A stretch of 64,000 nt of DNA from Candidatus Omnitrophota bacterium (GTDB taxonomy: Bacteria; Omnitrophota; Gorgyraeia; Zapsychrales; JANLHA01): positions 133,152-197,151 of the forward strand of contig JACKFI010000001.1 of NCBI GenBank assembly GCA_020632555.1, in the 5' to 3' direction. The translations under genes were made by a program, and so were the position numbers. The notes under the pieces are model-generated. The model was not told where the DNA came from, made no database searches, and saw only the letters and a program-made list of their open reading frames with translations. Positions 2,291 to 50,008 of the stretch are shown one piece after another; the stretch's first letter is position 1, and every line of letters begins with the position of its first letter.

Positions 2291-2297
2291 GGCCCCC

Positions 2298-5621: not shown

Positions 5622-5658
5622 ACCGTCCTCTGAATGTTAACCGGAAAGTTTCATCAAA

Positions 5659-10462: not shown

Positions 10463-11209
10463 TCAACGAATATTTTTGTAAAATTTTGCTAATCGCTGTG
10501 TGGACACACCTAAAATAAAACCCCAACTGAGTAAAATATTCATTAAGGTTGTTTTAACAATGCCTCGCTTTTCCCAACGCCGCGGCAAAACAGTGGCTGA
10601 TGAATCGAGAACAATGGTTTTACCTAACTGACGCAACTGTCGAGAGAAAAGCACATCTTCAAACAAAGGCACATTATCAAACCCACCGATTTGCTCAAAA
10701 ATATCTCGGCGGACAAAGATGGCTTGATCTCCATAAAAGATCTTAAATAATTCCGCACGCAAATTCCCAGACGATTCTATCCAACGATAAATCCATTTTC
10801 CAGAGTCAATCTTATGGGTAAAGCAACCGCCAACATAATTTAATAAAACTTGTTTAGCGATAATTCTCAATCCCTCCGCAGCGATGACACAGTCGGCATG
10901 TAAAAAAAGCAAAACATCTCCCTTTGCTGCACAAGCTCCCGCGTTCATTTGCACAGCTCTGCCGCGCGGGGATGTGATAACCTTCACTGAATACTGACCA
11001 ACAATATCCCTAGTCCTATCATTGCTATGACCGTCGACAACAATAACCTCAAGATCCGAAGCATAAGGCAGAGCCTTTAATGTTCTTTCAATCGCGGCCT
11101 CTTCGTTATAAACCGGAATAATAATAGAAATCACTGCAAAGTTCCCTGACAACTGGATCCTGTTCCCGCGGTGCAACCAAAACAATGATTGGCGGTCAAC
11201 ACCTGCCAA
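10463..11209 (-). CDS. Family-2 glycosyltransferase-like 'transferase 2, rSAM/selenodomain-associated' (TIGR04283-like)
   Basis: SIIIPVYNEE and D..D motifs. The ORF as drawn overlaps the upstream radical-SAM gene by 79 nt; the true start is more likely GTG at ~11134 or TTG at ~11152. Confidence 0.7.
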   Translation of the reverse strand: MAGVDRQSLFWLHRGNRIQLSGNFAVISIIIPVYNEEAAIERTLKALPYASDLEVIVVDGHSNDRTRDIVGQYSVKVITSPRGRAVQMNAGACAAKGDVLLFLHADCVIAAEGLRIIAKQVLLNYVGGCFTHKIDSGKWIYRWIESSGNLRAELFKIFYGDQAIFVRRDIFEQIGGFDNVPLFEDVLFSRQLRQLGKTIVLDSSATVLPRRWEKRGIVKTTLMNILLSWGFILGVSTQRLAKFYKNIR

Positions 11210-12111
11210 CTCTCCAAATCTTTTTTGGTAACATCAAAAACAGTAAGCTCATGATCCTTGCGCATTCCCATACCCAACATTTGATTAAAATCACAATCAA
11301 ACAGTTTCCCGTCCCAACCAATACTTAAGGTATTGCGACACATCAGTCCGTCTAAAGTGCCGGGATTAAAACTATTAACCAATAATTCACAATAACTTTC
11401 CAACTGATTAAATGTTTTTAAGAATTTGGCATAACGCGTAATGGGCATATTGGTGATGGTGTAAAGTTTATTAAAAACAATCCCGAAATCATCAGAAAGC
11501 CGCTGCTTGTAATCCTGTTGCAATTTCTCTTGTGCCGGTGGCAAATGCGCTCCGACGGGATTATAAACCAAATTCAACACAAGCCCACTATTGCTCTGCC
11601 CATACCCCAAGCGATTCAACTCTTGCAAAGCTTCAATAGATTTACCAAACACTCCCCTGCCTCGCTGTTGATCAACATTGTCTTGGGTATAACACGGCAA
11701 AGACGCAATCACCTCAACCTGATGCTGTGCCAGAAAATCTCCCAAGTCCTGCATGCCTTGTTCAAAGAGAATCGTTAAATTGCAACGGTCAATAATATGT
11801 ATTGCGCGCTGATGGGCTTGGTGCACCAAATAACGAAAGTGAGGATTCATTTCCGGCGCTCCACCCGTCAAATCCAAAGTCTTAGGATGAAATTCATCCA
11901 TTAACCGGACAATAGCCTGTGCTGTTCTCAAATCCATATTTTCTTTGACTTTGCTCGGCCCAGCCTCGACGTGACAATGAGAACAGGTCAAATTGCACAA
12001 CTTGCCTACATTGACTTGCAAAATGTCAATGCCCGTCTTGCGCAAATCATATTGATGTTGTGTTAATTTTTCTTTAAAGGATTTCATGCATACTACCTGA
12101 TTTAATCTCAT
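11131..12111 (-). CDS. arsS: Radical SAM protein, ArsS-like (arsenosugar-biosynthesis rSAM / rSAM-Cys-rich family)
   Basis: 326 aa. CNLTCSHC radical-SAM cluster motif and a C-terminal Cys-rich tail (CFGCTAGTGSSCQG). Co-located with the two companion transferase genes. Confidence 0.75.
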   Translation of the reverse strand: MRLNQVVCMKSFKEKLTQHQYDLRKTGIDILQVNVGKLCNLTCSHCHVEAGPSKVKENMDLRTAQAIVRLMDEFHPKTLDLTGGAPEMNPHFRYLVHQAHQRAIHIIDRCNLTILFEQGMQDLGDFLAQHQVEVIASLPCYTQDNVDQQRGRGVFGKSIEALQELNRLGYGQSNSGLVLNLVYNPVGAHLPPAQEKLQQDYKQRLSDDFGIVFNKLYTITNMPITRYAKFLKTFNQLESYCELLVNSFNPGTLDGLMCRNTLSIGWDGKLFDCDFNQMLGMGMRKDHELTVFDVTKKDLESWQVLTANHCFGCTAGTGSSCQGTLQ

Positions 12112-12685
12112 CTAAATCTTCTAAAACAGACACTGATTGATATTTTAATTTTAATTTTGTAATTATGTGATATGTCTGAGCTAAAACGTCGCTGGTGCTC
12201 CAACTGATATTCACGAACACTTGCGGATGATTCGCCGATAAACCAATCAAATAATAGCCGCCATCTTTAGCCGGCCCGATCACCACATCAATTTCATTAA
12301 GCAAGGCAAAACCTTGTTGAGCTATTGCAGTGGTCAAATGCAAAGTATCGCTGCCATAAGCGGCTACCCTTTTATACCCCTGAGCAAACGCCCAAGCAAA
12401 AGCCGACGTTAAACGCTGCCCCAAATCATCACCCTGCTGCGGAAGATACTCATCCGCACTGGGCAGCCACTGTTGAATTTTGTCATGATCCTCTGGCGGA
12501 TCAAAGAAAACGATCAAGTCTGTCTGCCCACAGGCCCGCAGAATAGAATAATTCTGCCCAGCCAATTGCCGATAAACTCGCGCGGCCGCTTGATCACCCA
12601 ATGTTTTGGCTAAGCGAGTCTTGACGTGTCCGGCCGTCGGATATTTCACAAAAAACAAAATCGCCTGTTGATTACGGCACGTCAT
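12074..12685 (-). CDS. DUF2064 'transferase 1, rSAM/selenodomain-associated' (TIGR04282-like)
   Basis: 203 aa. FVKYPTAGHVKTRLA N-terminus typical of DUF2064 (nucleotide-diphospho-sugar transferase fold). Overlaps arsS by 38 nt (operon). Confidence 0.7.
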   Translation of the reverse strand: MTCRNQQAILFFVKYPTAGHVKTRLAKTLGDQAAARVYRQLAGQNYSILRACGQTDLIVFFDPPEDHDKIQQWLPSADEYLPQQGDDLGQRLTSAFAWAFAQGYKRVAAYGSDTLHLTTAIAQQGFALLNEIDVVIGPAKDGGYYLIGLSANHPQVFVNISWSTSDVLAQTYHIITKLKLKYQSVSVLEDLDEIKSGSMHEIL

Positions 12686-17860: not shown

Positions 17861-18415
17861 CTAGAACTTGCGGCTATCATAGGCCCAATGCAACAATGCC
17901 TGACGCTGTTTACGACGACATGCTAAATCTCGAGGTTTACAATTTCTCTTTATTTGGGTGACATGGCGTTGCATAGCCCGCCAACGCTTGATCTGACGAA
18001 CATCCTCATCTGGTATGCGCCGGCCCATATAATAGCGACAATACCACTGAAACCAACCTCTGGGATCAGCTGGATGAATCCACCCTTTCATGCGCCAGGT
18101 ATGTAACGATTGACTAGCCTTTACCCCAAAAAAATTCGACTTTGAATCGTGACGCAAAGGACATAATTTCGCCTTCTTAAACCAAGTCGATGGAAACTCC
18201 TTGACACAATCGGTCATATACTTTCCACCAAAAACACCCAAAGATAACATCTGTTGTGGACTCAATTCAGGTTTGAATGCTTGATCAAAGTTCTTTCCCA
18301 TCGGTTGGACGAGTTGATAGTGGTAATTCTTTTGCATATGATCGTTTACAATAACAATCCTATGTCTCATCGCTAATCCATTGACTGACGACAAACACAT
18401 ACCAAAGATTGGCAC
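17861..18415 (-). CDS. Hypothetical Trp/Arg-rich protein (start uncertain)
   Basis: ORF overlaps the upstream NUDIX gene by 55 nt. Internal Met codons at ~18337 and ~18301 are alternative starts. The conserved-looking GWFQWYCRYYMGRR segment was not recognised. Confidence 0.35.
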   Translation of the reverse strand: MPIFGMCLSSVNGLAMRHRIVIVNDHMQKNYHYQLVQPMGKNFDQAFKPELSPQQMLSLGVFGGKYMTDCVKEFPSTWFKKAKLCPLRHDSKSNFFGVKASQSLHTWRMKGWIHPADPRGWFQWYCRYYMGRRIPDEDVRQIKRWRAMQRHVTQIKRNCKPRDLACRRKQRQALLHWAYDSRKF

Positions 18416-18923
18416 TAATCACCACTGCTTGCTTTATGGAGTTTAATAAAAATTGTTTTATTTCATTGACCGGGATAATAATCACTTCGATATCTTCCAA
18501 TGCCCCCAAATGCTGTTTTGGATTTTGATTCACCTGAGCATTTTCATCAATATAAACAAACACAACCCGTCCAGAATCATTGATGATTCCTGCTTGTGAT
18601 TTGATTAAAGGCCCCTTGTGTTTTATAAATCCAGTATATCCCGTTTCTTCCTTAAGTTCTTTGATAATTTGGGAATCGGAATGATTGTCTATTCCGGCCG
18701 GAAATCCGAGAATATAACCATTTATCGCAGGTCGGAATTGTTTAATCAATACAAATCTCCGAGATGGAATTAATTTTGCAATTATGACCACGCTAGAAGT
18801 ATTATTTTTACGAGCAACACTTTCCCAGCGTACTAAATCACCGTTTTTATTTTCATAAACGGTCTCTTTCAGCGATAACCAGCGGCCAGAATACAAATTA
18901 TTCTCAGTTATTCTTCTCATCAT
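18360..18923 (-). CDS. NUDIX hydrolase (ADP-ribose pyrophosphatase-like)
   Basis: Nudix box GFPAGIDNHSDSQIIKELKEETGY (G-x5-E-x7-REuxEExGu-like). Confidence 0.75.
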   Translation of the reverse strand: MMRRITENNLYSGRWLSLKETVYENKNGDLVRWESVARKNNTSSVVIIAKLIPSRRFVLIKQFRPAINGYILGFPAGIDNHSDSQIIKELKEETGYTGFIKHKGPLIKSQAGIINDSGRVVFVYIDENAQVNQNPKQHLGALEDIEVIIIPVNEIKQFLLNSIKQAVVISANLWYVFVVSQWISDET

Positions 18924-19470
18924 TAACCAGTTCCCCAGATTGTTTTTGCCAGAGTTGAGGAACTTTACGTACTTTGCTCATATCATAACCCTGGTCTTTT
19001 AACATACTGATCAGACGCTGATAATCAGCCTCAGGAATTTCGGGAGTGCGCGCCATGATCCAAAAATAATCACGTTTATTGCGGCCAATAATGGTTTGAC
19101 TATAATCCGCGTTTAAATAGGTAATCAGATACTCCGCTTTAAAAGGCCAAATAAACTGCATCGCCCAGGTTGAGTTGTTGACCTTATCGACAACAAAACC
19201 ACGCGGATTGTATCGTTTAGCCGGTCCATCAAAACCGCCTTGATTAAAAGTAAAAATCGTGTCAATCGAACCATCGTCCAGCAGCCGGTATTCTTCAATG
19301 CCGTTATAAGCTTTGGTTTCTATAAAGGTGGGAATCGCCGCCAAAACATACCAAGGCCCCATAAATCTTTTCAAATCAACTTTCTCGGCAGTCTTCAACC
19401 GAGGCAGCGAACTGGCACAGCCGGTCACAAAAAAGGTGCACATTAAAATCAATATCGCTTGTATTCTCAT
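18904..19470 (-). CDS. blc: Bacterial lipocalin (Blc-like outer-membrane lipoprotein)
   Basis: Lipobox (FFVTGCAS). Lipocalin SCR1 motif FMGPWYVLA. Confidence 0.8.
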   Translation of the reverse strand: MRIQAILILMCTFFVTGCASSLPRLKTAEKVDLKRFMGPWYVLAAIPTFIETKAYNGIEEYRLLDDGSIDTIFTFNQGGFDGPAKRYNPRGFVVDKVNNSTWAMQFIWPFKAEYLITYLNADYSQTIIGRNKRDYFWIMARTPEIPEADYQRLISMLKDQGYDMSKVRKVPQLWQKQSGELVNDEKNN

Positions 19471-19525
19471 ATTTCTCCTTTTGGTTTTAAAATCATTCTT
19501 AATTTATTGATCGTTCTCTTTATCA

Positions 19526-20311
19526 TCATCGCCGCTTTGGCAAGGGGATAAAGAAACTTGTTGTCCGCATATATTCTTTAAAGGCCTCTCCTTTATTCTT
19601 CAAAGCTCGTGTTTCCATCAGCGGGATTCCTGTCACTTTCATTAAAAGAAAGAGCATCAATGCTGGTGCGATGAAACCCCACCATCCCTGAGGACTGCCT
19701 AAAGCGAAGATAAAATAGGCCACCCACATCAGCCATTCAAAAAAGAAATTAGGATGTCGTGAATAATTCCATAATCCTTGCTGACAAATCTTGCCTTTGT
19801 TGTTTGAATCCGCTTTAAATTTTCTTAATTGTTCATCCGCTACCGATTCGCCGATCAGACCAATCAACCATATCACCACCGCGATAAGTTCAATCACCTT
19901 AATGGTTGGATCAGTATTGAGAAACGCAATAAAAAACGGGACGGACAGCACAACATTAAAAATTGGCTGCAGTTGGAAGATCACAAAAAAATTCCGCCCA
20001 GCTTGGCGCCCCCAATCTTCTCTAAATTGAGCGTAACGACTGTCCTCGCGTCCATCATGAATGATTCGCCGCAGCAAATGCGAGGACAAACGCAAGGTCC
20101 AAATGAAAATAGGCAGCAAAATCAACCACTTCCTTAATAGAAACCCATCTAAGTTGATCGCATACCAACCAACTAAAACAGACATGCCAATACTCCAACC
20201 CACATCAGCTGTTGACGCATCTTTGGTGCGCATTTGTATGCCCCACAACACCGTCTGCATCAAGACAAGCATCAGGTACCCTTTAAAAATGATGTCAAAG
20301 TTTTCGCTCAT
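19526..20311 (-). CDS. DUF1295 / steroid 5-alpha-reductase-like membrane protein
   Basis: Polytopic. C-terminal NYSRHPNFFFEWLMW motif typical of DUF1295 / ICMT-like proteins. Confidence 0.7.
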   Translation of the reverse strand: MSENFDIIFKGYLMLVLMQTVLWGIQMRTKDASTADVGWSIGMSVLVGWYAINLDGFLLRKWLILLPIFIWTLRLSSHLLRRIIHDGREDSRYAQFREDWGRQAGRNFFVIFQLQPIFNVVLSVPFFIAFLNTDPTIKVIELIAVVIWLIGLIGESVADEQLRKFKADSNNKGKICQQGLWNYSRHPNFFFEWLMWVAYFIFALGSPQGWWGFIAPALMLFLLMKVTGIPLMETRALKNKGEAFKEYMRTTSFFIPLPKRR

Positions 20312-20754
20312 TGTGGTTTATGATGGTTCGCCATTTTGTTTTTAACAAAACGCACCATCCCTCCTAAAATTGGTATACCTTCGTAGACAAACTCACCCAG
20401 ATCAAAATAATCCCGGTGATAAATAGCTTTGCCTTCTTTTCCTCCGAATTTAATAACCGATACGCCATCAACGATAACCGGTTGACCTTTATTAAAGTTT
20501 TTGGCTATCAATGTCATCTTCCAGACCAAACTGCAACTGTTGCCATCTCTGATCTGATCAGGAATATCCCAATGGATTGATTGAACATTGTTATACATGT
20601 TCCGATAATAATCCTTCATTTGCTGGCGATTGTTGACGGCGACTAAAGGATCAAGAAATTTGATATTCTCGTCGTAAAATTGATCAACCAGATGCATGGT
20701 ATCCTTGTTGAGTGCTTCAAAAAATTCTTTGGGTGTTAAGATTTCAGCAGCCAT
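20308..20754 (-). CDS. NTF2/SnoaL-like fold protein (ketosteroid-isomerase-like)
   Basis: 148 aa. Pattern FYDENIKFLDPLVAV... Confidence 0.6.
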   Translation of the reverse strand: MAAEILTPKEFFEALNKDTMHLVDQFYDENIKFLDPLVAVNNRQQMKDYYRNMYNNVQSIHWDIPDQIRDGNSCSLVWKMTLIAKNFNKGQPVIVDGVSVIKFGGKEGKAIYHRDYFDLGEFVYEGIPILGGMVRFVKNKMANHHKPQ

Positions 20755-20777
20755 AGATAACTCTCCTTATCAGCTGA

Positions 20778-21773
20778 TTAAATAAGATTGTTGACCTTTA
20801 GTAAACCACACAACTGTTTTAATGTAAATCGCTTATTAACTGCCAAATACGTCTGCTGTTTATTCGCTTTGTAATGATCTTTATGCTGACCAATGGTCTG
20901 ATAATTGTAAAATAAACTTGTCCGATAAATCAGTTGAAATATCTTTTCTGCGAATTGTGAATATGGGAATGATTGATTGTTCCTTTGATATAAGGGCGCC
21001 AATCCTAATGATATCTGTTCGAATCCTTCTTGTTTAAATTGAAACAAAGCATTGAGTATTAAAAAATCCTGGGATCCTAAAGGCGCTTTATCAGATACCC
21101 GAAGATGTTGAAGGGTGTAACTTAACACCTGACCTGTGTTCATTTTAGAAAAAATTGGATCAAAAGTGCAAAATCCAATGATATCTTTGTTTTTGACCAT
21201 ATAGAAATATCTAACCCCTGGCTCTTTGGTCCCATTAAAGGGCCGAGCCATAAACCGCAATTCTTTAGAACCCGGTTTTACTTTGAGCCATTGATCATTG
21301 ATGTCCCAGACTTTTTGAGCGTCAGCGTTATACTCAAAAACAAAATACTTTTGATTATTCAATTTTGAAAGATAACTCTTTAAACATTTTCTTTTTTTCC
21401 AAGACACCTCAAAATCTTGAGTATTGATCACATGCTCAACACCAAACCCATTGATTGTATAATTTAAACATTTTAATACTGTTGCATAGTCATAAGAAAT
21501 CTGACAATAAACAGCATTTTTGTGCTTTTGCTCAAACAAAACGGTTGCTTTTAACATTTCACTTTTGGGTGTTATCGGATCAGAAAGCACAAAATCAACA
21601 CCCCAAACAGATGTATAAGGAATAAAGCCTTGAAACGACGGATGACGAAATTCTCGAATGTCTTTCTGAAGAGCTGAATAAGACATGCTATTGGTACCGT
21701 ATTTCAAGATATTTTCAATCTTTATATGATTGTCAAAATTTACCAATGATTTATTTAAGGTTTGTCCGCTCAT
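20778..21773 (-). CDS. DUF2156-like protein (phosphatidylglycerol lysyltransferase C-terminal-domain family)
   Basis: 331 aa. Resembles the MprF C-terminal (acyltransferase-fold) domain (…FEQISLGLAPL…). No TM flippase domain. Confidence 0.5.
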   Translation of the reverse strand: MSGQTLNKSLVNFDNHIKIENILKYGTNSMSYSALQKDIREFRHPSFQGFIPYTSVWGVDFVLSDPITPKSEMLKATVLFEQKHKNAVYCQISYDYATVLKCLNYTINGFGVEHVINTQDFEVSWKKRKCLKSYLSKLNNQKYFVFEYNADAQKVWDINDQWLKVKPGSKELRFMARPFNGTKEPGVRYFYMVKNKDIIGFCTFDPIFSKMNTGQVLSYTLQHLRVSDKAPLGSQDFLILNALFQFKQEGFEQISLGLAPLYQRNNQSFPYSQFAEKIFQLIYRTSLFYNYQTIGQHKDHYKANKQQTYLAVNKRFTLKQLCGLLKVNNLI

Positions 21774-21945
21774 GATAAATTCCTCTCTGGTCTAGGCATA
21801 ATTGGGCCAAGGTCCCCCTACCAAAAAATAATTGGGTCCCATCTTTTCCTTATTGATTGTTCTCTTTGAAGGCTCTTGCTCAACAAAACAATCTTTGCAA
21901 TTTATACCGTGCAACTTTGCATAAATTGTTTGCGCTAATCTTTTT

Positions 21946-23214
21946 TTATCCAATAGTGTTTGTGCACACATGATTCATCTCCCTTTTTAGTTTATGTGTT
22001 CTTCCGTATTTCTTATGGGCTTGAGTAAAGTGTCCGGCCGCAATGGCAGCCGCAATTGAGATTTCTCCTGCCAGAACAGTGGCGGCACAAATTTCAGCAA
22101 ACTTTTTTGATTTATCTTTTCCATAACAATCCATCAGTTCTAAACATTCTTTCTGAGTGGGAAGATGCGTTCCTCCACCCACAGTGCCCACAATCAAATT
22201 GGGCAATGAAATGGAGATATAAAGATCCCCTTGTTTGGTTAACTCCGCCCTGGAGGTCCCTGTTGAGGACTCAGCAACACAAGCAGCATCTTGACCACAA
22301 GCAATAAAAAGAGCTGTCAAAGCATTGGAGAAATGCGCATTGACCCCAATAGAACCACTGTGAATGCCGCCGACCATAGCCATATTGCTATACTCAACAA
22401 ATTCTTCAGGCGTTGTATGCAAAAACTTTTTGACTAGCAATTTATTGATAGTAACTTCGGCCAACATATTTTTTCCTCTACCTGCATATTGAGATAGCCT
22501 AGTGGCCTTTTTATCTCCAGAAAGATTGGCATCGATATACCATTTATTGGGTTTAATGGGACTGAACTTTTCAATATAGTGACAAATCGCGTCGGTGGCG
22601 ATAGTCACCATATTCTGCCCAGCCGCATCCCCGCTAACAAACTTAAAGTTAATCCAAACATATTTACCGTCTATCTTAGAATCAAAATCTTCAAGGTGAC
22701 CATAACGGGTTGTTGTTGTAACGATATCTCTTAAAATAGTAAAATGCTCTGATACCCAAGCCACAAATTGCGCGGACTCAAAAATACTATTAAAAATAAA
22801 TCCAGGCGAGCGCGTTATCGTTTCGGAAATACACAAAACATTCGCTCCACCACTGAGTGTTATAATCTTTGCTCCTCTGTTATAGGAGGCCACCAAAGCC
22901 CCTTCAGTGGTCGCTAATGGGACGTGCCATGAGCCACCCGCATAAGCCCCATTGACTCTCAAGGGACCAATCAATCCAATTGGAATCTGAGCCATACCAT
23001 AAAAGTTCTCTATATTCCCATCAAAAATACTGGGATCTTGAATCTTCTTGATTCCAGCCAAATAAGGCCCAGCTGGCGGTTGCTGATTTTTCATAGGTTT
23101 TACCCCAATCCCGTGATTCTTAATGTTATTTTTTATTTGACCTAAAACTTCCGAATCAATGATTGTATTTAACCTCGTTTTCATTTGACTTTTTGATATA
23201 TACATTTCGCTCAC
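21946..23214 (-). CDS. hmgR: Hydroxymethylglutaryl-CoA reductase, class I
   Basis: 422 aa. ENFYGMAQIPIGLIGPL (ENxxGxxxxPxG), DAAGQNM (DAMGxN), GTVGGGT. Soluble catalytic domain only. Confidence 0.88.
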   Translation of the reverse strand: MSEMYISKSQMKTRLNTIIDSEVLGQIKNNIKNHGIGVKPMKNQQPPAGPYLAGIKKIQDPSIFDGNIENFYGMAQIPIGLIGPLRVNGAYAGGSWHVPLATTEGALVASYNRGAKIITLSGGANVLCISETITRSPGFIFNSIFESAQFVAWVSEHFTILRDIVTTTTRYGHLEDFDSKIDGKYVWINFKFVSGDAAGQNMVTIATDAICHYIEKFSPIKPNKWYIDANLSGDKKATRLSQYAGRGKNMLAEVTINKLLVKKFLHTTPEEFVEYSNMAMVGGIHSGSIGVNAHFSNALTALFIACGQDAACVAESSTGTSRAELTKQGDLYISISLPNLIVGTVGGGTHLPTQKECLELMDCYGKDKSKKFAEICAATVLAGEISIAAAIAAGHFTQAHKKYGRTHKLKREMNHVCTNTIG

Positions 23215-23847
23215 CTACCTTTCCACTCGCATGGCGAGTTGCTCTTGACGAAAGTTCTGGTCATTTTTTAACCCTAGGATTTGATTTTTTAAATTCTGAT
23301 CAAATGGTTTTTCCCCAATCCATACCGAAAATAAAGCCTTGGCAAAATCATTGCCTTGAATAACTCCGGTGAGTTGATCATTATGAGCAAACTTTGTACC
23401 AACTCCGGGAATATACGTTAATGAAAATCTATCGCCGGGTTTTAAATCAACAAAATATTGGCCCATTAAATCAACTTCTGCGGCAATGCTGTTGAATTGC
23501 TCATTGGTTATATTTTCTTTCATCGTATCAATTGTAAAATTGTTGAGTTTTTTGCCAGGGATTTTAACGAAATACTCAACTTCAATTCTTTTTGCTGTCT
23601 GGCCGAGAACAATTTCTTGATCAATCGCATCTGTATAAAAACCAGCAACAAAGGCCTTAAAAAAGACCACGGTCTTTAAACCTGTTCCTTGAAGAGTCAT
23701 GCTAATGCCTTCGTCTTGATAAGTCTCTTCAAAATTAACGCCAACAATCTGTGCCGCATTGGCATTGAATGAAATAAAAATGCTGCACAAAAAAGTTGTG
23801 ACAAAAATATTAATTTTCTTCATTTGACCTCCCCTGACTATTGGCAC
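23215..23847 (-). CDS. Chalcone-isomerase-like (fatty-acid-binding-type) secreted protein
   Basis: Signal peptide, then GVNFEE...LQGTGLKTVVFFKAFVAGFYTD, matching the bacterial CHI-like family. Confidence 0.6.
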   Translation of the reverse strand: MPIVRGGQMKKINIFVTTFLCSIFISFNANAAQIVGVNFEETYQDEGISMTLQGTGLKTVVFFKAFVAGFYTDAIDQEIVLGQTAKRIEVEYFVKIPGKKLNNFTIDTMKENITNEQFNSIAAEVDLMGQYFVDLKPGDRFSLTYIPGVGTKFAHNDQLTGVIQGNDFAKALFSVWIGEKPFDQNLKNQILGLKNDQNFRQEQLAMRVER

Positions 23848-24361
23848 TGTTTAAGATGGATGAAGTCGTATAATTAAAAGCAACTCCTAAATAACCCATG
23901 CTCTTGGACTGCATAGAACCTTTGAAATAATTTTGGCTTTGTTGATACTCTAGCTGGTCGGGGAAAAACATAGCCGCGATATATTGACAGCTTATGGTAA
24001 ATTTTCTTTTTGGAGAGACCAGAACACTAAAATATCTATCCGTCAAATCCGGCACTATCCGACTTTCCTCAATATCCCAAAAAAGGAAATTATTAACCAT
24101 CACGGGAAAGTCATTGGGATTAAATATCGTTATTAATATGTCGTGGCGTGTTCTCAGTTCACCATGCTGATCTGTAGTTCCACAAATAAAATCAGCCCGA
24201 TTCTCATACTCAATAGGATCTTGAATATATGCTTGGACGCTGACAACAGTGCTGGCCGCAATGATTGCAGCAAAAAGTAGAATTTTGATAAGTTGATTGA
24301 TTTTGACTGTCATTGCTCTGCTCTCCTTTATGTTGCTAGAATAGCAGGCTCCAAAAAACAA
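23810..24361 (-). CDS. Hypothetical secreted protein
   Basis: 183 aa. N-terminal signal/TM, no recognised domain. Confidence 0.35.
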   Translation of the reverse strand: MFFGACYSSNIKESRAMTVKINQLIKILLFAAIIAASTVVSVQAYIQDPIEYENRADFICGTTDQHGELRTRHDILITIFNPNDFPVMVNNFLFWDIEESRIVPDLTDRYFSVLVSPKRKFTISCQYIAAMFFPDQLEYQQSQNYFKGSMQSKSMGYLGVAFNYTTSSILNSANSQGRSNEEN

Positions 24362-24431
24362 TCAACGCCGCATGATACACTACATAACATGTATATAAAA
24401 GTAAGTGTTTAGTATATTTCTTGAAATCTTC

Positions 24432-25325
24432 TTAAAGCGTTTGAAGATAAGTGGTTAGGTTAACATCCTTGTTTGTTATACCTAATTTATTGCGGATTCT
24501 GTTCCGATGAGTCTCTACAGTCTTGGAAGAAATGTTTAACATTTCTACAATTTCTTTGCTGCTAACTCCGTTTTTAATGAGATTGGCGATCTCGACTTCA
24601 CGTGGGGATAATTTCAACTGCTGCTCAGAAACCTTAATGCCAAAAGTTGAAGTTAAGTCTTTCAAGTTCTTCTCTAAAATGTCAATATACTTTTTGTCTA
24701 AGCGGGTTCCTTTTCGCTTGATTTTCTTTAAAGCGGGAATCAAAACTTCCTCGACATTCATCACAACCCCTTCTTTGATTCTTTTTTTCTCTAATTCTAT
24801 TTGCTCCAAAATCTCCTTCAATGCCCCATTTTTTTGCTCGATAGCTTGCTCTGATTTCTTGCGATCGGTTATGTCATGCTGAATAGCGATATAATGAGTC
24901 AAATTCCCCGATTCATCCTTGATGGGCTCAATATGCCACTCATTCCAAAACTCGGAACCATCTTTGCGATAGTTAATGGCTTGCCCATAAAACACTTCTC
25001 CGGCTTCTAATGCTGCTCTAAGCCTGCGGGTAACAGATTGATCTGTCTTTGGCCCTTGTAGGATGCGAGGCGTCTTTCCCAGCACGTCCTCGGGCAAATA
25101 GCCGGTCATCCTTGTAAAACCCGGATTCACATAAAGAATTTTAGGGCCGGGCGGATCCAAATCTTTTGTTGTGACAATAATCGAATCTTGAGTAAAGTGA
25201 ACCACAGAGGCCAGAAGCTTTTCATCTGCTTGATATTTTGAATTGTATTGACTCATGCTTGTGAAATTTCCTAAAGTTTTAATCACTTTTCCCCTAATTC
25301 TACGTTGACTTGTGCAACATGACAA
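24432..25325 (-). CDS. PAS-domain / LuxR-type HTH transcriptional regulator
   Basis: N-terminal PAS (…YVNPGFTRMTGYLPEDVLG…). C-terminal LuxR/FixJ HTH (LSPREVEIANLIKNGVSSKEIVEMLNISSKTVETHRNRIRNKLG). Confidence 0.8.
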   Translation of the reverse strand: MSCCTSQRRIRGKVIKTLGNFTSMSQYNSKYQADEKLLASVVHFTQDSIIVTTKDLDPPGPKILYVNPGFTRMTGYLPEDVLGKTPRILQGPKTDQSVTRRLRAALEAGEVFYGQAINYRKDGSEFWNEWHIEPIKDESGNLTHYIAIQHDITDRKKSEQAIEQKNGALKEILEQIELEKKRIKEGVVMNVEEVLIPALKKIKRKGTRLDKKYIDILEKNLKDLTSTFGIKVSEQQLKLSPREVEIANLIKNGVSSKEIVEMLNISSKTVETHRNRIRNKLGITNKDVNLTTYLQTL

Positions 25326-25556: not shown

Positions 25557-26690
25557 TTAAGTGTCCTTCAATGCGTAACTTGTGCTGCGCCCACCCGCGG
25601 TTTCTTTTACTAAAATACCCTTTTCAACAAGATCGAGAATATCGCGCAACGCCGTGTCCTGTGAACACTGGGTGATCTTCGCCCATTTAGAAGAAGTGAG
25701 CTTGCCTTCAAAACCATCAAACAACTTATTGATGATCATCTTCTGCCTCTCGTTAAGGGATTGGGCAGGATGAGATTCCCAAAAACGCGCTTTCTTAAAT
25801 ACACCCGACAAAGTATTTTCAGTTGCATCCAACGCCCGACCCAAACAGCTCAGGAACCACACAAGCCATGGCGTAATATCAATGCCGTCTTTTGTGGCAC
25901 GGTTACTTTTCTGTGTTTTTTCAAGAATATCATAATAGGCATTCCGTTCCTGCCGGATCTGATTCGACATGCTGTAAAAACGCTCCCGGCTGCCGTCGGC
26001 ACGTGCCAGTTGCATATCGGCAATAGCCCGGGCAATTCTTCCGTTACCATCATCAAAAGGATGAAGTGTCACAAACCACAAATGCCCAATACCAGCTTTG
26101 AGCACAGGATCTAAATCCTTTGTGAGCGAAATCGAAGTGTTAAACCATTTCAGAAATTCCTTCATTTCACTTTTAAGACGGTTGGCCTGCGGTGCTTTAT
26201 AATGAACCTTCTCCCGGCCGATAGGACCAGACACAACTCTCATGGGACCATGCTTATCGTCGCGCCAATCAGCCACTGTAATTTTATGCATTCCGCTTCT
26301 ACCGGTTGGGAATAAACTGGCATGCCAGCCAAACATTCGATCCTGCGTAAGGGGCTTGTCAAATTTCTGTGTGGCATCGAGCATCATTTCCACCACTCCA
26401 TCCACATGACGATCAGAAGGCACAAGTCCACCGATGTCCATGCCCAGCCTGCGTGCAATGGATGACCGCACTTTGGCAGGGTCAAGAATCTCACCTTCAA
26501 TTTCACTACTTTTTAAAACATCAAGGGTGAGAGTCTGCAGGATTGCCTCGGAACGCAAAGAAAAACCCAATGCTTCCATTCTTCCAATCAGTCGCCCTTG
26601 GCGATTGCGGACAGTCCCCAAGATAGACGCGACCTTTTCGTGATCCCATGTCAATTTAGGCCAAATGGTTAATTCATGAATGTATTTCAT
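25557..26690 (-). CDS. fic: Fic-family protein (AMPylase/phosphocholine-transferase-type, Fic/DOC)
   Basis: Canonical Fic motif HPFDDGNGRIARA. C-terminal winged-helix-like segment. Confidence 0.88.
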   Translation of the reverse strand: MKYIHELTIWPKLTWDHEKVASILGTVRNRQGRLIGRMEALGFSLRSEAILQTLTLDVLKSSEIEGEILDPAKVRSSIARRLGMDIGGLVPSDRHVDGVVEMMLDATQKFDKPLTQDRMFGWHASLFPTGRSGMHKITVADWRDDKHGPMRVVSGPIGREKVHYKAPQANRLKSEMKEFLKWFNTSISLTKDLDPVLKAGIGHLWFVTLHPFDDGNGRIARAIADMQLARADGSRERFYSMSNQIRQERNAYYDILEKTQKSNRATKDGIDITPWLVWFLSCLGRALDATENTLSGVFKKARFWESHPAQSLNERQKMIINKLFDGFEGKLTSSKWAKITQCSQDTALRDILDLVEKGILVKETAGGRSTSYALKDT

Positions 26691-26720
26691 GGCAAATTCC
26701 TGCGGTGAATAGTCTCATTA

Positions 26721-26765
26721 TTCTACGCATACTATGCGGAGAATATACCATGTTTTCTCCGCATA
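26721..26765. promoter_or_regulatory. Three-half-site operator-like element upstream of fic: TTCTACGCATA-c-TATGCGGAGAA-(11 nt)-TTCTCCGCATA
   Basis: 26733-26743 and 26755-26765 are a perfect 11-bp inverted repeat. 26721-26731 is a 10/11 direct copy of the right arm. Located 31-75 bp upstream of the fic ATG. Confidence 0.5.
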
Positions 26766-26877
26766 CACAAGAGAGATTTAAATCTATATTGCTCCCTACT
26801 AAAAGAAAGCGTCATTGGATATAACGGCTATGTCCAATCATATCCAATTATTGAATCTTTCCATGAGATTTGAAACG

Positions 26878-26895
26878 ATGTGCCGGATTCCTGCC
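26878..26895 (-). promoter_or_regulatory. Degenerate 4th copy of the repeated 18-bp motif (ATGTGCCGGATTCCTGCC, 15/18), ~190 bp upstream of fic, fused to hairpin CCTGCC-TACC-GGCAGG
   Basis: Read directly from the sequence. Same orientation as the other copies. The hairpin core CCTGCCTACCGGCAGGCA recurs at 38564-38581. Confidence 0.3.
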
Positions 26896-26918
26896 TACCG
26901 GCAGGCAGGTGTGCCAAG

Positions 26919-27866
26919 TTATAATCGATCTGAATATTGTGAGATTGTACTTAAAATTTCATCAAACGATATTTGCCCCTGATAATACAATGTTGCAGTT
27001 TTTAGGCACTCCTTCTTAAATTGATCTCTTATCTTCGTATCTTTCAGCAAAAAAGCCTCCTGCTTTGCAATAGGAAACTTTTGATCTGCGACGGGAAATC
27101 TCTTCTTCTTATGCTCGTTGTATTCTGAAGTCCCGATAAACTTCTGAACCGTATCGTTTTGCAAAAGGCAAGCAACATCGTAATAATGCCGGATAAAATT
27201 AGCAGGCATCTTTCCGGACTCTTGCAGTTTCCGAAACTTTGTTGCGATTGTTTGCAATTTCTCAACAAACGTATAACCCAGATGATAGCACAAAACACCA
27301 CCAGCTCTATTATCCTTAACCTTGAGTCCATTCTGCAATGCAAAATCAAGCGCCCAAGAGCTAATATCCATCGGGCTGTTGGGCGTCACCTCATCAAACC
27401 CAACTTCGAGCAATACACCCTCTTTTATGCCGCCGGCAACAGAGAAAGCACTTTTGTAAAAAAGCCGTATTCCACCGCTAAAGAATTTTTCATTATCAAA
27501 TTCCGTGTCACGAATAATTCTTTGTATCCCATCAATATTAATTTTCTTCGCCAACCAGTCATAGTATTTCTTACGGCTTGCACAATGATCTGGTTTTATA
27601 TGGTTTGGACCTGTCTTGACTTCCATGCCGGCAGGCGGTTCGATACGAATATCAATGTCCTCAGAAAATCGATGAATAATGCCATACCCTTTTGAGAGCG
27701 ACGTACCTCCTTTGAGCTCGAAGGTAAATCCCCCTTGTTGCAAACCATATAAAACATGCATGATCCAATAATCTTTTTCAACCAGACTACGCTCTATCTT
27801 TTTTTCATGCTCTACAGCTCGCAAGAGTTCTTTAAATTCAGCGTGGTTATGTAAATAATCAGACAT
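26919..27866 (-). CDS. AbiEii/AbiGii-family nucleotidyltransferase toxin (type IV TA / abortive infection)
   Basis: 315 aa, DUF1814-type nucleotidyltransferase (…GGTSLSKGYGIIHRFSEDIDI…). Overlaps the upstream partner by 8 nt. Confidence 0.8.
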   Translation of the reverse strand: MSDYLHNHAEFKELLRAVEHEKKIERSLVEKDYWIMHVLYGLQQGGFTFELKGGTSLSKGYGIIHRFSEDIDIRIEPPAGMEVKTGPNHIKPDHCASRKKYYDWLAKKINIDGIQRIIRDTEFDNEKFFSGGIRLFYKSAFSVAGGIKEGVLLEVGFDEVTPNSPMDISSWALDFALQNGLKVKDNRAGGVLCYHLGYTFVEKLQTIATKFRKLQESGKMPANFIRHYYDVACLLQNDTVQKFIGTSEYNEHKKKRFPVADQKFPIAKQEAFLLKDTKIRDQFKKECLKTATLYYQGQISFDEILSTISQYSDRL

Positions 27867-28452
27867 GTGCTAAGTTTCCCTCTAACATCCATTGATTAAA
27901 TAAAGTTTTTGTTCTTTCTCCTGCATAAACATTGACCGCGCGCTTCATCTGAGATTCTGGTTCTTTCAGCACTTTTTCCTTAACACTTCGCAAAACACTT
28001 TCCCGATCTTCCGCTAACTCATTTAAATTGTTCAGTAAATCAACCAGTAGAAATTCTTCGGACAATTCTCTGGGGAATTTATGCTTTAATCGAAAATCAA
28101 ACTCCTTTCCACCAAGAACGAATTGACCATGCCGTTTATGATTATAAACAAAGCGCGTATTGTACAACTGCGTAGTTCCCACTCCTAAAGAATTGTAAAG
28201 GTTAGGCGAGGTTAAAAGAAAATCATCGCTTTTTAAGAAGGCCCGTACCAATTTTTCGTCTTCCGGTGGCACAGAGCCAAACGAGGCTTTTGCAGGATAA
28301 TAGTACAATCCCTGTGACATTTTTTGCAAGGTCCCCTCATCAACCAGTTGCTTTAAATGCCGATCAACCGCGGTTGACCATTGCTCCAGATCAACCCTGC
28401 GATAAACCTGTCCCGGTTTTAAATGCCTTTTAAGTTCGCTAAGCGCGTCCAC
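27859..28452 (-). CDS. AbiEi-family antitoxin / transcriptional regulator
   Basis: 197 aa. N-terminal wHTH-like region. Position and size are typical of AbiEi partners of AbiEii. Confidence 0.65.
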   Translation of the reverse strand: MDALSELKRHLKPGQVYRRVDLEQWSTAVDRHLKQLVDEGTLQKMSQGLYYYPAKASFGSVPPEDEKLVRAFLKSDDFLLTSPNLYNSLGVGTTQLYNTRFVYNHKRHGQFVLGGKEFDFRLKHKFPRELSEEFLLVDLLNNLNELAEDRESVLRSVKEKVLKEPESQMKRAVNVYAGERTKTLFNQWMLEGNLAHV

Positions 28453-30546: not shown

Positions 30547-31560
30547 TCATATTGAAACGTGGCATTGCCCATTGCCAAGATCAACAAAATTAATTTTAAC
30601 ATCCATGAACTTCTCAATAATCTCGGCATTGGTAAGGCTGTGCAGCGTCAGGGCCGTAGTTTTAAATTCTCCACCTTTGGCCAAAGCAAACGGGATCAAA
30701 AGCTGATCAGCCAAATACGTCCCCACCGGAGCATCGATTTGTAAATATTTCTTTACTTGTTCAATGGCTTCATGCGCTACTGCTTCCGCGCTTTTACGCA
30801 ATTCTCCGAAACCCACAAACATTTCCCTGATATTTTCACTATCAACCTCAACCGTAAAAATATTTCCCGGACCTTGAGAATCCATGGCTTGAAAAATCTC
30901 ACTTTGATCATCTTCCAGAGAAAAATGTTTTTTAGCGACCGCGATTTCTCTGACAGCAACATTGCCAGGGATTTGGGCAAAGAGTGATCTTGCCTTTATG
31001 CCTTTAAGTTTGCCGCGCTCTAACAAAAATATGGGTTTTAATTTCTTTATAGGCACAATTTTAGCTTCGATCTTTCCGCCGCCGGCCGGGTAAAAACCGT
31101 GGCGATGCAAAGTCACTTCTAAATCCACACCCATTTGTTTGAGAATCGGCGCAAAAACTATTTTTAAAAAATCCACCGGGGGTGCGAAAGGATTATGCGT
31201 TCCTCCTTCGATCACAATTATGGATGGTGAGTCCGCGATCATCAAAGCCGGTAAAATGGTTTGCAAAACAAGAGTCGCGCTACCCGCCGTCCCAACTGAA
31301 AAATGGTATTCCCCTGCGGTGACTTCTCCCGGATAGAAAGTCAGCTTTTGCGAGCCGATAACATTCCCATCGACCTTTGCATCTCCAATCTTCGTAGCTG
31401 CTTCGACAGCCGTTAAATGCTGGCGTAAAAGCCCCGGCTTACTACGCTTAGCGCGGATATTCTCAATCGTAAACGGCTCGCCCGTTACTAAGGACAACCC
31501 GAGAGCTGTCCTTAGTATTTGGCCCCCGCCTTCACCGATTGAACCGTCGATTTTAATCAT
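30547..31560 (-). CDS. rtcA: RNA 3'-terminal phosphate cyclase
   Basis: 337 aa. N-terminus IDGSIGEGGGQILRTALGLSLVTGEPFTIENIRAKRSKPGL is diagnostic of RtcA. Confidence 0.88.
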   Translation of the reverse strand: MIKIDGSIGEGGGQILRTALGLSLVTGEPFTIENIRAKRSKPGLLRQHLTAVEAATKIGDAKVDGNVIGSQKLTFYPGEVTAGEYHFSVGTAGSATLVLQTILPALMIADSPSIIVIEGGTHNPFAPPVDFLKIVFAPILKQMGVDLEVTLHRHGFYPAGGGKIEAKIVPIKKLKPIFLLERGKLKGIKARSLFAQIPGNVAVREIAVAKKHFSLEDDQSEIFQAMDSQGPGNIFTVEVDSENIREMFVGFGELRKSAEAVAHEAIEQVKKYLQIDAPVGTYLADQLLIPFALAKGGEFKTTALTLHSLTNAEIIEKFMDVKINFVDLGNGQCHVSI

Positions 31561-32306
31561 TTGACCTCTTTGGTTCTCACCGGAACGACTTGACCCGATA
31601 CTCCTAAGACAATCGTACTTCCCGGTGATTGTAAAGCTCGCAATTGCAATAACGCAGGATTGTCTTCCAACACTTTAGAAACATTGGCCAAATTGCGCAA
31701 AGACGCGGTTTCTCCGCGGGCACGTTCCAATGCCGCCAACCCTTCTTTTTGCGCCTCAACAACCTTAGCAAAGATTTTCTTTAATTCACCCGGAAACATA
31801 ACGTCCTTAACGCCGATGAGCGTAATTTTTAAACCGATTTCCTTCGCTTTGGCAACCGTCGCTTCCATCAACTTTTGATTAATCGTTGCTCGCTGTGCCA
31901 AAACCTCATCGATCGCTAAAGAGCCAATGATGTCACGAACTGCCAATTGTACCACCGCGTATAAAGCCTCGGTGTAACTAGCGATCTTATTAACGGCGAT
32001 GTTGGCATCTTCGATCTCATATTGCGCCGTAATGCTGACCTTTAAGGACACATTGTCCGAACTTAAGACTTCCTGCCCCGGGATCGTGATGACTCGAGGA
32101 CGAACATCGATCTTAACGATGATCGTATTCTGAGAAAACTTAAAATAACGACCCGGTTCCAAAATTCCGACAAATTTTCCCTTGCGATATTTTAAACCCT
32201 TCTCATATTCAAGAATAGTGACAAAATATTTTGCACTAAAAACCGCAATGACGACCCAACCGATAAAGCCGAGCACCGCCATGCTTACTAATGTTGATAA
32301 TGTCAT
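31557..32306 (-). CDS. SPFH/band-7 (stomatin/slipin-like) membrane protein inserted between rtcB and rtcA
   Basis: N-terminal TM followed by an SPFH domain and a coiled-coil-like tail (…QKEGLAALERARGETAS…). Overlaps rtcA by 4 nt. Confidence 0.8.
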   Translation of the reverse strand: MTLSTLVSMAVLGFIGWVVIAVFSAKYFVTILEYEKGLKYRKGKFVGILEPGRYFKFSQNTIIVKIDVRPRVITIPGQEVLSSDNVSLKVSITAQYEIEDANIAVNKIASYTEALYAVVQLAVRDIIGSLAIDEVLAQRATINQKLMEATVAKAKEIGLKITLIGVKDVMFPGELKKIFAKVVEAQKEGLAALERARGETASLRNLANVSKVLEDNPALLQLRALQSPGSTIVLGVSGQVVPVRTKEVK

Positions 32307-32602
32307 TTCTTTCTCCTTTTGTTTTTAAAAGTTCTGTCTTAAAAAAATTGTAGAATCGCAGTGGAGGTTGTTGACCTGCAAGACGGCTTTTCTACGAGCA
32401 ACTTTCTTAAGACAGAACGTGGGGATTTGAACCCCTCGGATTACTCCTTGACCAGGGCGAGCGTTTATCTGCAAAATGATATGGCCGATGCCATGTCATC
32501 GCACTGGATTCGCTCGCATATTTTTTTATCCCAATTTTTGCTAAAGGATTTTGCTTTTGGTAAATTGGGATTACGCAAATTTTTTCTATCGAAAATCTGC
32601 CT

Positions 32603-34120: not shown

Positions 34121-34243
34121 TTGTTTTTCCCTTATATTGCCCCTTTCCTTTATCGTTGCTTAAAGCATACCCTATCCAAAGCCAAATGTCAAATTTATTT
34201 TTATTTTCTTGTATAAATGTTTATCCTGTGATATATTTATACC

Positions 34244-47996: not shown

Positions 47997-48011
47997 ATTT
48001 TTATCCCTGTC

Positions 48012-50006: not shown

Positions 50007-50008
50007 AT

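Follow-up and report, generated by a model that had tools for sequence, protein, structure and literature searches.

Within a 64-kb stretch of the genome of a Candidatus Omnitrophota bacterium, hereafter called the window, the genes between positions 17861 and 25256 probably form one regulatory unit. The unit comprises a LOV-like PAS-LuxR transcription factor, with proline instead of the cysteine that forms the adduct in LOV domains, and a photo-oxidative-stress operon that the factor likely controls and that includes a nonmevalonate module of a hydroxymethylglutaryl-CoA (HMG-CoA) reductase-like protein (HMGR) and a DUF2156 protein. The argument is built on observed gene content, synteny, operator sequences, residue patterns, and phylogeny, and the regulon assignment is moderately well supported. 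An earlier note on this DNA had described an HMGR without a mevalonate context and suggested a lipid or isoprenoid-derived modification pathway rather than housekeeping isoprenoid synthesis. All six domains that it named are present where it placed them, on the minus strand (Pfam), the neighbors of the HMGR gene are conserved, and a housekeeping role for the HMGR is very unlikely. The theme of the locus, however, is that of a light/redox-stress regulon and is not simply lipid. Nor is the pathway free-standing: the operon lies behind a conserved operator and beside a regulator gene that is outside the range covered by that note, and the operon of relatives includes photolyase.

Conservation of the operon

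The order of genes around the HMGR gene recurs on independent contigs, with identity of the encoded HMGR to that of the window ranging from 95% down to 57%; the cluster is therefore more than a chance arrangement. Conservation is confined to one clade, hereafter the light clade, which is small (about 23 clusters) and patchy within the phylum. Scans of GTDB genomes and JGI metagenomes yielded 160 loci with HMGR relatives 47–62% identical; among the matches listed, the window's neighbors were found in none of these loci, and the metagenome scan contributed one member of the clade (L089). Contigs of closer relatives carry the operon.

In L081 (HMGR 95% identical), gene order is identical to that of the window. 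L082 (73%) has genes for the PAS-GerE regulator, a chalcone-isomerase-like (CHI) protein, HMGR, DUF2156, SnoaL, DUF1295, an SRPBCC-like protein, glutathione peroxidase, a homolog of the protein encoded at 17861–18370 in the window, YceI, DUF547, and lipocalin. L168 (72%) has the regulator, CHI, HMGR, DUF2156, SnoaL, SRPBCC-like, and glutathione peroxidase genes, and L169 (70%) additionally has a cyclopropane fatty acid (CFA)-synthase-type methyltransferase (CMAS), GTP cyclohydrolase I, DUF547, YceI, and lipocalin. The operon of L083 (69%) combines the regulator, HMGR, DUF2156, GTP cyclohydrolase I, SRPBCC-like, YceI, and a DUF2867 epimerase. In L170 (Omnitrophica, on a 2.0-Mb contig; 57%), the regulator, CHI, HMGR, CMAS, DUF2156, SnoaL, and DUF1295 are followed by a DUF2867 epimerase, DUF523/DUF1722, and photolyase. 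L172 carries PPK2, the regulator, HMGR, DUF2156, SRPBCC-like, DUF523/DUF1722, and photolyase; L173 carries YaaA, HMGR, DUF2156, SRPBCC-like, and photolyase with no adjacent regulator; and photolyase directly follows HMGR in L085 (62%). Photolyase is in the same operon in L085, L170, L172, and L173, CMAS is in that of L169 and L170, and lipocalin is in those of L082 and L169.

Clustering of the locus proteins from ten informative contexts placed DUF2156 in nine, the regulator in eight, SRPBCC-like proteins in seven, CHI in six, and SnoaL in five. Four contexts each have DUF1295, photolyase, the DUF2867 epimerase, and PPK2, and three each have lipocalin, YceI, and glutathione peroxidase. CHI immediately precedes HMGR in five of its six related loci. 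Based on these frequencies, the stable core is regulator/operator–HMGR–DUF2156, in which HMGR and DUF2156 are an invariant pair, and the genes with a lipid theme vary between loci as passengers in a larger stress regulon. Of the neighbors named in the earlier note, DUF2156 alone is coupled strictly to HMGR; the genes for CHI, SnoaL, DUF1295, and lipocalin are accessory, present in some loci and absent from others.

The regulator and the adjacent operator

The regulator gene (24432–25256, minus strand) encodes a 274-aa protein with a LOV-like PAS domain and a LuxR/GerE helix-turn-helix (HTH) domain (Pfam PAS_9, 1.9e-23; GerE, 2.6e-14), and its open reading frame (ORF) could reach a TTG at 25325. 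Of 10 contexts, 8 have this gene directly beside the HMGR operon. The best PDB matches of the PAS domain are LOV photoreceptors (LOV histidine kinases, YtvA, phototropin, and aureochrome) and also the FAD-PAS domain of MmoS, and the best NCBIfam match is YtvA_fam. The flavin-binding signature is kept (GKTPRILQGP ... NYRKDG ... FWN ... IQHD), as are the equivalents of N482, N492, Q513, R451, and Q454. The adduct cysteine of the GXNCRFLQG motif is replaced by proline (GKTPRILQG). Proline is at this position in all eight syntenic orthologs and in 119 of 120 homologs, with alanine in one and cysteine in none. Because the adduct cysteine is absent from 120 of 120 homologs, canonical LOV photochemistry cannot take place; photoreduction or a redox change may serve as the signal.

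About 70 natural LOV-like proteins with Ala, His, or Pro in place of Cys were described by Yee et al. (2015; PMC4682037). One of these variants, the Pro-type LOV* domain of halobacterial Bat, is a flavin-binding domain that responds when it is reduced chemically or by light (PMC4682037). The regulator of the window shares with Bat the proline at the adduct position (PMC4682037), but Bat is a larger, multidomain protein of another architecture. With EL222-type LOV-HTH proteins, it shares a single flavin-type PAS/LOV domain, a helical linker, a LuxR/GerE HTH domain, and the LOV signature residues; it differs from these in that its family lacks the adduct cysteine. It differs from both EL222 and Bat in its TACATG inverted-repeat operator, which is defined by sequence comparison only. 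The regulator is best described as a candidate integrated light/redox sensor, not as a canonical LOV photoreceptor.

The operator became apparent when the stretches that separate the regulator gene from the start of the operon were aligned; in the window it spans 24338–24393 on the minus strand together with the putative promoter. Across the related loci, its architecture consists of a 20-bp palindrome, CATGTA-N7/8-TACATG, and a proximal inverted repeat, TACATG-N2-4-(A)TGTA. At the 3' side of the proximal repeat are GCGTTGAyy, a predicted -35 element, 16 nt, and TGyTAyxCT, a predicted extended -10 element. In the window, the inverted repeat TACATGTTATGTA at 24393–24381 (minus strand) is followed by the -35 region GGCGTTGATT (TTGATT, 24365–24360), a 16-nt spacer, the extended -10 element TGcTATTCT (TATTCT, 24343–24338), a ribosome binding site, and the ATG at 24313. 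The promoter assignment is a prediction from conservation across related loci. A consensus promoter scan picked TTTATA-16-TATCAT, which overlaps the operator; TTGATT-16-TATTCT is preferred because it is phylogenetically conserved.

The 31-nt composite TACATG..GCGTTG (24363–24393 in the window, minus strand) is unique within the window and occurs once in each of nine related loci, the window among them, always before the operon. A regular-expression search of both strands of the remaining 160 loci (2.02 Mb) found no match to it. The 20-bp palindrome is likewise confined to loci of the clade; L169 has three copies ahead of separate units, and L173 retains the palindrome though no regulator gene adjoins. 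Such a distribution is strong comparative evidence for a dedicated transcription-factor site. The operator sites are centered about 20–35 nt upstream of the -35 element, and we predict that they are bound by the adjacent LuxR-type protein, with activation rather than repression as the outcome. As a separate observation, the regulator is encoded a second time in L169, at 3022–3759 between the regulator and HMGR, in a form that is truncated at the N terminus and contains an assembly gap (XXXX). This copy is preceded by a palindrome of its own and looks like a tandem duplication of regulator and operator.

The HMGR-like enzyme and its partner

The HMGR-like gene (21946–23205, minus strand; MCB9756938.1 in NCBI, where proteins of the window are on a 197-kb contig as MCB9756923 to MCB9756960) encodes a 419-aa protein when its start is corrected to the ATG at 23205, in agreement with the database gene call; the 422-aa version with a GTG start had no match in an exact-protein look-up. 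The earlier description of the protein as soluble and class I stands: it scores 350 bits against TIGR00533 (class I) versus 39 bits against TIGR00532 (class II), and it has no N-terminal hydrophobic segment. It scores 376 bits against PF00368 (HMG-CoA_red; 2.5e-112), for which the gathering cut-off is 27, and aligns with the Methanothermococcus HMGR 6HR7 at E=2.7e-93 with an identity of about 44–50%. The TIGR00533 score, however, is below the curated NCBIfam cut-off of 441.8 for this class I equivalog.

Residues Glu559, Lys691, Asp767, and His866 (human numbering) are conserved in the HMGR of the window and in all nine members of the clade, and so are Asp690, Lys692, Asn755, and Arg590; His752 and the GTVGGG motif are present in the HMGR of the window. 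Two HMG-contact residues differ from those of human HMGR, with Ser684, a polar contact of the cis-loop, changed to Asp and Lys735 changed to Met. Archaeal and human HMGRs retain both, and light-clade sequences lack a conserved basic residue at or within one position of K735. K735 forms a salt bridge to the terminal carboxylate of HMG (PMC9500038). Compared with archaeal-type class I HMGR (EC 1.1.1.34; 6HR7), the protein has the same fold, TTEG, DKK, GQDAA, and GTVGGG motifs, and C-terminal His, but differs in having DAAGQN for DAMGMN, in the S684D and K735M changes, in its score below the TIGR00533 cut-off, and in its lack of a mevalonate context. In a neighbor-joining tree of 154 HMGR relatives, the operon-linked sequences are monophyletic in 200 of 200 bootstrap replicates. 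Given its context, phylogeny, and pocket residues, we argue for a different role, and the protein named HMGR may not be a true HMG-CoA reductase. In a side observation, the HMGR-like proteins of Flavobacteriales (L073:3179–4459 and L080:9872–11152) have E559Q, D690E, K692M, and N686G replacements and, because these affect catalytic and substrate residues, are probably inactive as HMG-CoA reductases.

Orphan HMGRs are known from bacteria that lack a mevalonate (MVA) pathway, as in Vibrio (class I) and Burkholderia cenocepacia (class II). The HMGR described here resembles these in being a homolog in a genome that probably relies on the methylerythritol phosphate (MEP) pathway; it differs from them in its fixed partner DUF2156, its defined operator and regulator, and its stress-regulon context. 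No MVA or MEP family was found in window ORFs of at least 150 aa, in accord with the earlier observation that no other mevalonate gene is nearby. Beside about 170 HMGR relatives there are no MVA genes, with neither an HMG-CoA synthase nor a GHMP-kinase neighbor, and none were found flanking relatives that lack an operon context (Verrucomicrobiota and Bacteroidota). KEGG module M00096, which we take to be the nonmevalonate (MEP) module, bears on this question for the phylum as a whole. The module is reported to be complete or near-complete across Omnitrophota by Seymour et al. (2023; PMC10066038), and in the Planctomycetes–Verrucomicrobia–Chlamydiae (PVC) group the MVA pathway is exceptional, limited to Kiritimatiella and Waddlia (PMC5148204). 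The orphan status of the HMGR is well supported, though not proven.

The partner gene (20778–21773, minus strand) encodes a stand-alone DUF2156 protein (LPG_synthase_C; Pfam 8e-34, 117 bits) that aligns with the entire aminoacyl-phosphatidylglycerol synthase domain of MprF (PDB 4V36, residues about 18–319, E=1e-11). Like MprF, it has a complete catalytic C-terminal synthase domain with the conserved motifs R-S-x-x-AP-x-G-x-x-D, G-L/M-APL, and K-x-x-YK. Unlike MprF, it has no transmembrane or flippase domains, as judged by its lack of a hydrophobic segment, and it scores 100 bits against full-length MprF (NF033480; cut-off 600), matching the C-terminal part only. Its subfamily comprises 27 clusters at E<=1e-10. 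At an identity of at least 44%, a DUF2156 gene adjoins HMGR in 10 of 10 contexts, being one gene away in L170, and eight further members are on contigs of the same size as those of light-clade HMGRs. A single member, an outlier (38% identical; L171:253–2230), was found to lack an HMGR; it lies beside a fatty-acid desaturase, which supports a lipid-related role of the subfamily. A literature search for links between DUF2156 or DUF3419 and HMGR, one query of which was poorly designed, found none.

The nearest relatives of the light clade in the tree, including sequences from Omnitrophota, are all HMGRs of a second operon, here called operon A (L001–L167; e.g., L041:9770–18500, L027:10001–17000, and L001:9825–15000), which is present in about 98 of 170 sampled loci. 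Operon A encodes an HMGR-like protein, a BtaA-like DUF3419 protein, a membrane protein of ~455 aa, often a GNAT protein of ~347 aa, an AMP-binding ligase, a UbiA prenyltransferase, and a PPDK_N/PEP-utilizers enzyme. It spans Omnitrophota, Planctomycetota, Verrucomicrobiota, Lentisphaerota, Bacteroidota, Nitrospirota, Armatimonadota, Gemmatimonadota, and cyanobacteria. No MVA genes are beside operon A, and a literature search on it found nothing. The set of HMGR-like, UbiA, and BtaA-like proteins points to an uncharacterized, widespread lipid pathway. The ~455-aa membrane protein has no Pfam or PDB profile match and by eye only resembles phytol/dolichol kinases. Homology of DUF2156 to the ~347-aa GNAT protein was considered and rejected (hhalign probability 1.2%).

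Proposed function and alternative explanations

Across relatives, the operon repertoire includes photolyase, DUF523/DUF1722, a CFA-synthase-type methyltransferase, GTP cyclohydrolase I, thiol/glutathione peroxidase, and YaaA, along with proteins that carry hydrophobic ligands (CHI-like, lipocalin, YceI, SRPBCC, and SnoaL). DUF1295, SnoaL, lipocalin, and DUF523/DUF1722 are probably associated with blue-light/singlet-oxygen regulons. Because the repertoire matches such regulons, we interpret the locus of the window as the form that a light/redox-stress regulon of Omnitrophota takes here. In Vibrio cholerae, blue light induces photolyase operons and VC1118–VC1123, which includes a CFA synthase, via ChrR/sigmaE and a MerR regulator (PMC5241685). 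Photolyase, a CFA-synthase-like methyltransferase, a short-chain dehydrogenase/reductase or epimerase, and thiol peroxidases are common to those regulons and the operons of relatives. In contrast to sigmaE-ChrR and MerR-LitR regulons, the regulator here is a LOV*-LuxR protein, and HMGR-like and DUF2156 enzymes are present; no ChrR, extracytoplasmic function sigma factor, or MerR gene is in the operon region. VCA0723, the locus tag of the V. cholerae HMGR, was not found in the parts of the blue-light supplementary tables that were searched (PMC5241685), and no literature was found that combines blue light, photolyase, cyclopropane, and hydroxymethylglutaryl.

The signal, mode of activation, and chemistry are predicted as follows. 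Blue light or a redox change would reduce or photoreduce the flavin of the regulator, which would dimerize and bind the TACATG inverted repeats upstream of the GCGTTGA -35 element. The bound regulator would activate a sigma-70-type promoter. The HMGR-like enzyme would use NADPH to reduce a CoA thioester to a primary alcohol, with either HMG-CoA or a related acyl-CoA as the substrate, the latter in view of the changes in the carboxylate pocket. DUF2156 would then esterify this product or a membrane lipid, with an aminoacyl-tRNA, as in MprF, or an acyl group as the donor. Secreted lipid-binding proteins may then deal with the protective envelope lipid or small molecule so formed.

Several observations weigh against this interpretation. 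The operon of the window itself has no photolyase, CFA synthase, or glutathione peroxidase, and of the operator, the window has, like L081, just the proximal half. The regulator family (P0175–P0294), with at least 120 clusters at an identity of at least 55%, mostly labeled Omnitrophota, extends far beyond the HMGR clade, so that the regulator is not HMGR-specific, and HMGR and DUF2156 are accessory cargo of a broader regulon. Some homologs of the regulator vary at flavin-phosphate positions (R to K/G/A/Q and Q to H/S), so flavin binding is not certain family-wide. The signal could also be redox or reactive oxygen species instead of light, or something else. All catalytic and most substrate-contact residues of a true HMGR are present, and because these are kept and identity to an archaeal HMGR is about 44–50%, genuine HMG-CoA reductase activity is possible. 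The S684 and K735 replacements are common to the whole bacterial family sampled, none of whose members has a known activity, and are thus suggestive but not decisive. Evidence on MVA and MEP genes from this genome covers the 64-kb window.

These points leave room for roles in isoprenoid metabolism. A housekeeping HMGR of the mevalonate pathway, with the other pathway genes scattered elsewhere and unrelated neighbors, would fit the HMG-CoA_red match of 2.5e-112, the fully intact catalytic residues, the use of the MVA pathway by the PVC members Kiritimatiella and Waddlia (PMC5148204), and the inspection of 64 kb of the genome. We nevertheless regard it as very unlikely: M00096 is reported to be complete or near-complete in Omnitrophota (PMC10066038), residues that contact HMG, among them Lys735 of the carboxylate salt bridge, are replaced, the protein does not reach the NCBIfam cut-off for the equivalog, the small and patchy clade of about 23 clusters is unlike that of an essential gene, and in every lineage examined the gene follows a conserved operator of its own and is accompanied by photolyase and stress genes. 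The altered carboxylate pocket also disfavors a light-induced boost in supply of isoprenoids (carotenoids, quinones, or polyprenols), by which mevalonate would be converted to isopentenyl diphosphate by unrecognized or remote kinases and a decarboxylase, and the lipid-binding proteins and DUF1295 would handle the products. Consistent with such a boost are YceI in related operons, a protein annotated as polyisoprenoid-binding, and the relatedness of DUF1295 to steroid/polyprenol reductases and isoprenylcysteine methyltransferase. Light-inducible carotenogenesis is known, with MerR-family regulation in Streptomyces and Myxococcus cited in PMC5241685. But there is no crt, prenyltransferase, or MVA lower-pathway gene in 10 versions of the operon, the strict partner is DUF2156 and not a kinase, and an organism with the MEP pathway does not need mevalonate, all of which make this explanation unlikely.

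That all loci are in one clade, apparently all Omnitrophota, that L085, L170, L172, and L173 have a backbone of the Mla operon, PPK2, and hisI in common, and that neighbors differ between loci would be expected if HMGR and DUF2156 had ancestrally come to lie next to a stress regulon and been inherited vertically while having an unrelated role of their own. Such synteny without shared function seems improbable, given that the other genes have been repeatedly reshuffled around the core while HMGR stays directly downstream of the operator and promoter, that gaps between HMGR and its neighbors are -26 to +14 nt in most loci, and that minimal operons of the L172 and L173 type have only HMGR, DUF2156, SRPBCC, and photolyase. 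Use of the enzyme in the opposite direction, with mevalonate scavenged from archaeal or bacterial hosts and oxidized to HMG-CoA and with DUF2156 using the CoA ester, is highly improbable. Oxidative HMGRs occur in Pseudomonas mevalonii and B. cenocepacia. Those known are class II and NAD-dependent, whereas the HMGR of the window is class I (350 vs. 39 bits). Although Omnitrophota have been proposed to be parasites or predators (PMC10066038) and acyl-CoA donors are common for GNAT-fold enzymes, the operon has no HMG-CoA lyase or transporter, and catabolism provides no reason for coregulation with photolyase.

Compared with these alternatives, control of a photo-oxidative-stress operon by the LOV-like regulator is the more probable reading. 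A broader and more doubtful proposal, which we offer only tentatively, is that the class I HMGRs of many nonmevalonate bacteria (the light clade and those of operon A) are a neofunctionalized family that reduces a CoA thioester other than HMG-CoA or makes nonisoprenoid use of mevalonate and builds undescribed envelope lipids or metabolites. In Omnitrophota, such an enzyme may have been captured, along with a soluble MprF-like transferase, by a Cys-less LOV/LuxR light-redox switch and may act beside photolyase as an inducible photoprotective membrane modification.

Gene layout and other loci of the window

All genes between 13.5 and 30 kb of the window are on the minus strand. Those downstream of the operator form a run of nine genes from the ATG at 24313 down to 17861 (starts corrected to database calls and orthologs), with intergenic gaps of -20 to +172 nt and several overlaps. 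A search of the minus strand of this run found no convincing terminator, and an Rfam scan of 16–27 kb, including the 172-nt spacer between HMGR and DUF2156, found no RNA family.

The first gene (23810–24313) encodes a 167-aa protein with a signal-like leader and no Pfam or NCBIfam match; its start was corrected to the ATG at 24313 from a 183-aa ORF (23810–24361). Among relatives, only the closest (L081) has a homolog, which is 73% identical. The CHI gene (23215–23823; Chalcone_3, Pfam 1.4e-35), with its start corrected to the ATG at 23823, is 9 nt upstream of HMGR, and its product has an N-terminal signal peptide, as expected from the earlier description of it as a secreted type. Hydrophobic N-terminal leaders are shared by the CHI-like protein, the lipocalin, and the product of the 167-aa ORF. 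Downstream of DUF2156 are genes for a SnoaL_2/NTF2-like protein (20308–20754; Pfam 1.2e-12) and a DUF1295/Steroid_dh protein (19526–20311; Pfam 2e-67), the start of the latter overlapping the stop of the former by 4 nt. The DUF1295 protein is steroid-5-alpha-reductase-like and, with at least four hydrophobic segments by hydropathy, a multipass membrane protein. A Blc-type Lipocalin_2 protein (18904–19470; Pfam 7e-38) is a probable lipoprotein with the lipobox VTGC. The next gene (18360–18923) overlaps the stop of the lipocalin gene by 20 nt and encodes a weakly Nudix-like protein (NCBIfam NudE 1e-5, below cut-off; Pfam NUDIX 0.02); its spacing alone suggests membership in the operon, and none is seen in related loci.

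The last gene of the packed run (17861–18370) encodes a conserved protein of 169 aa for which Pfam, NCBIfam, and PDB gave no match. It carries the motif PxDPRGWFQWYCRYYMGRR and is within the stress operon in two lineages, with a homolog 69% identical in the operon of L082 (L082:9764–10270). A single-sequence AlphaFold2 model of it had a pLDDT of 46 and was unusable.

Directly upstream of the regulator, at 25557–28452, are genes for a Fic/DUF4172 protein and a pair of AbiEii (toxin) and DUF6088 (AbiEi-like) proteins. Relatives have fasciclin or other genes at this location, and the segment is therefore probably a defense or mobile insertion. Elsewhere, the window has a GlgE-pathway alpha-glucan cluster (314–7635) of GlgB branching enzyme, a TreS-maltokinase fusion (1107 aa), and GlgE maltosyltransferase, and a triad of radical-SAM DUF3641, DUF2064, and family-2 glycosyltransferase genes (10463–12685) that adjoins genes for a pyridine-nucleotide disulfide oxidoreductase, a VTT/DedA protein, and a TetR regulator. 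An RNA repair module at 30547–35842 consists of RtcA cyclase, an SPFH/Band 7 protein, RtcB ligase, and the divergent sigma-54 activator RtcR, and an IS256-type (Mutator family) transposase is at 37347–38471. Three tandem paralogs of 673, 664, and 644 aa (45975–51943) each end in Peptidase_S74 (endosialidase chaperone); one has an ice-binding-like beta roll, and the trio looks like tail-fibre-like or surface proteins.

Implications

What is new is a variant of a light/redox regulon with a different regulator and a real possibility of new enzymology. Annotation of such proteins as hydroxymethylglutaryl-CoA reductase may wrongly imply mevalonate metabolism in Omnitrophota and in many PVC, Fibrobacteres–Chlorobi–Bacteroidetes, and other bacteria. 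With one regulator, one operator, and two enzymes, the locus is a compact system for studying natural Cys-less LOV-type sensors. The HMGR fold and the MprF synthase fold may each prove to have a new use here, and the locus can help show how an uncultured, nanobacterial phylum handles light and oxidative damage.

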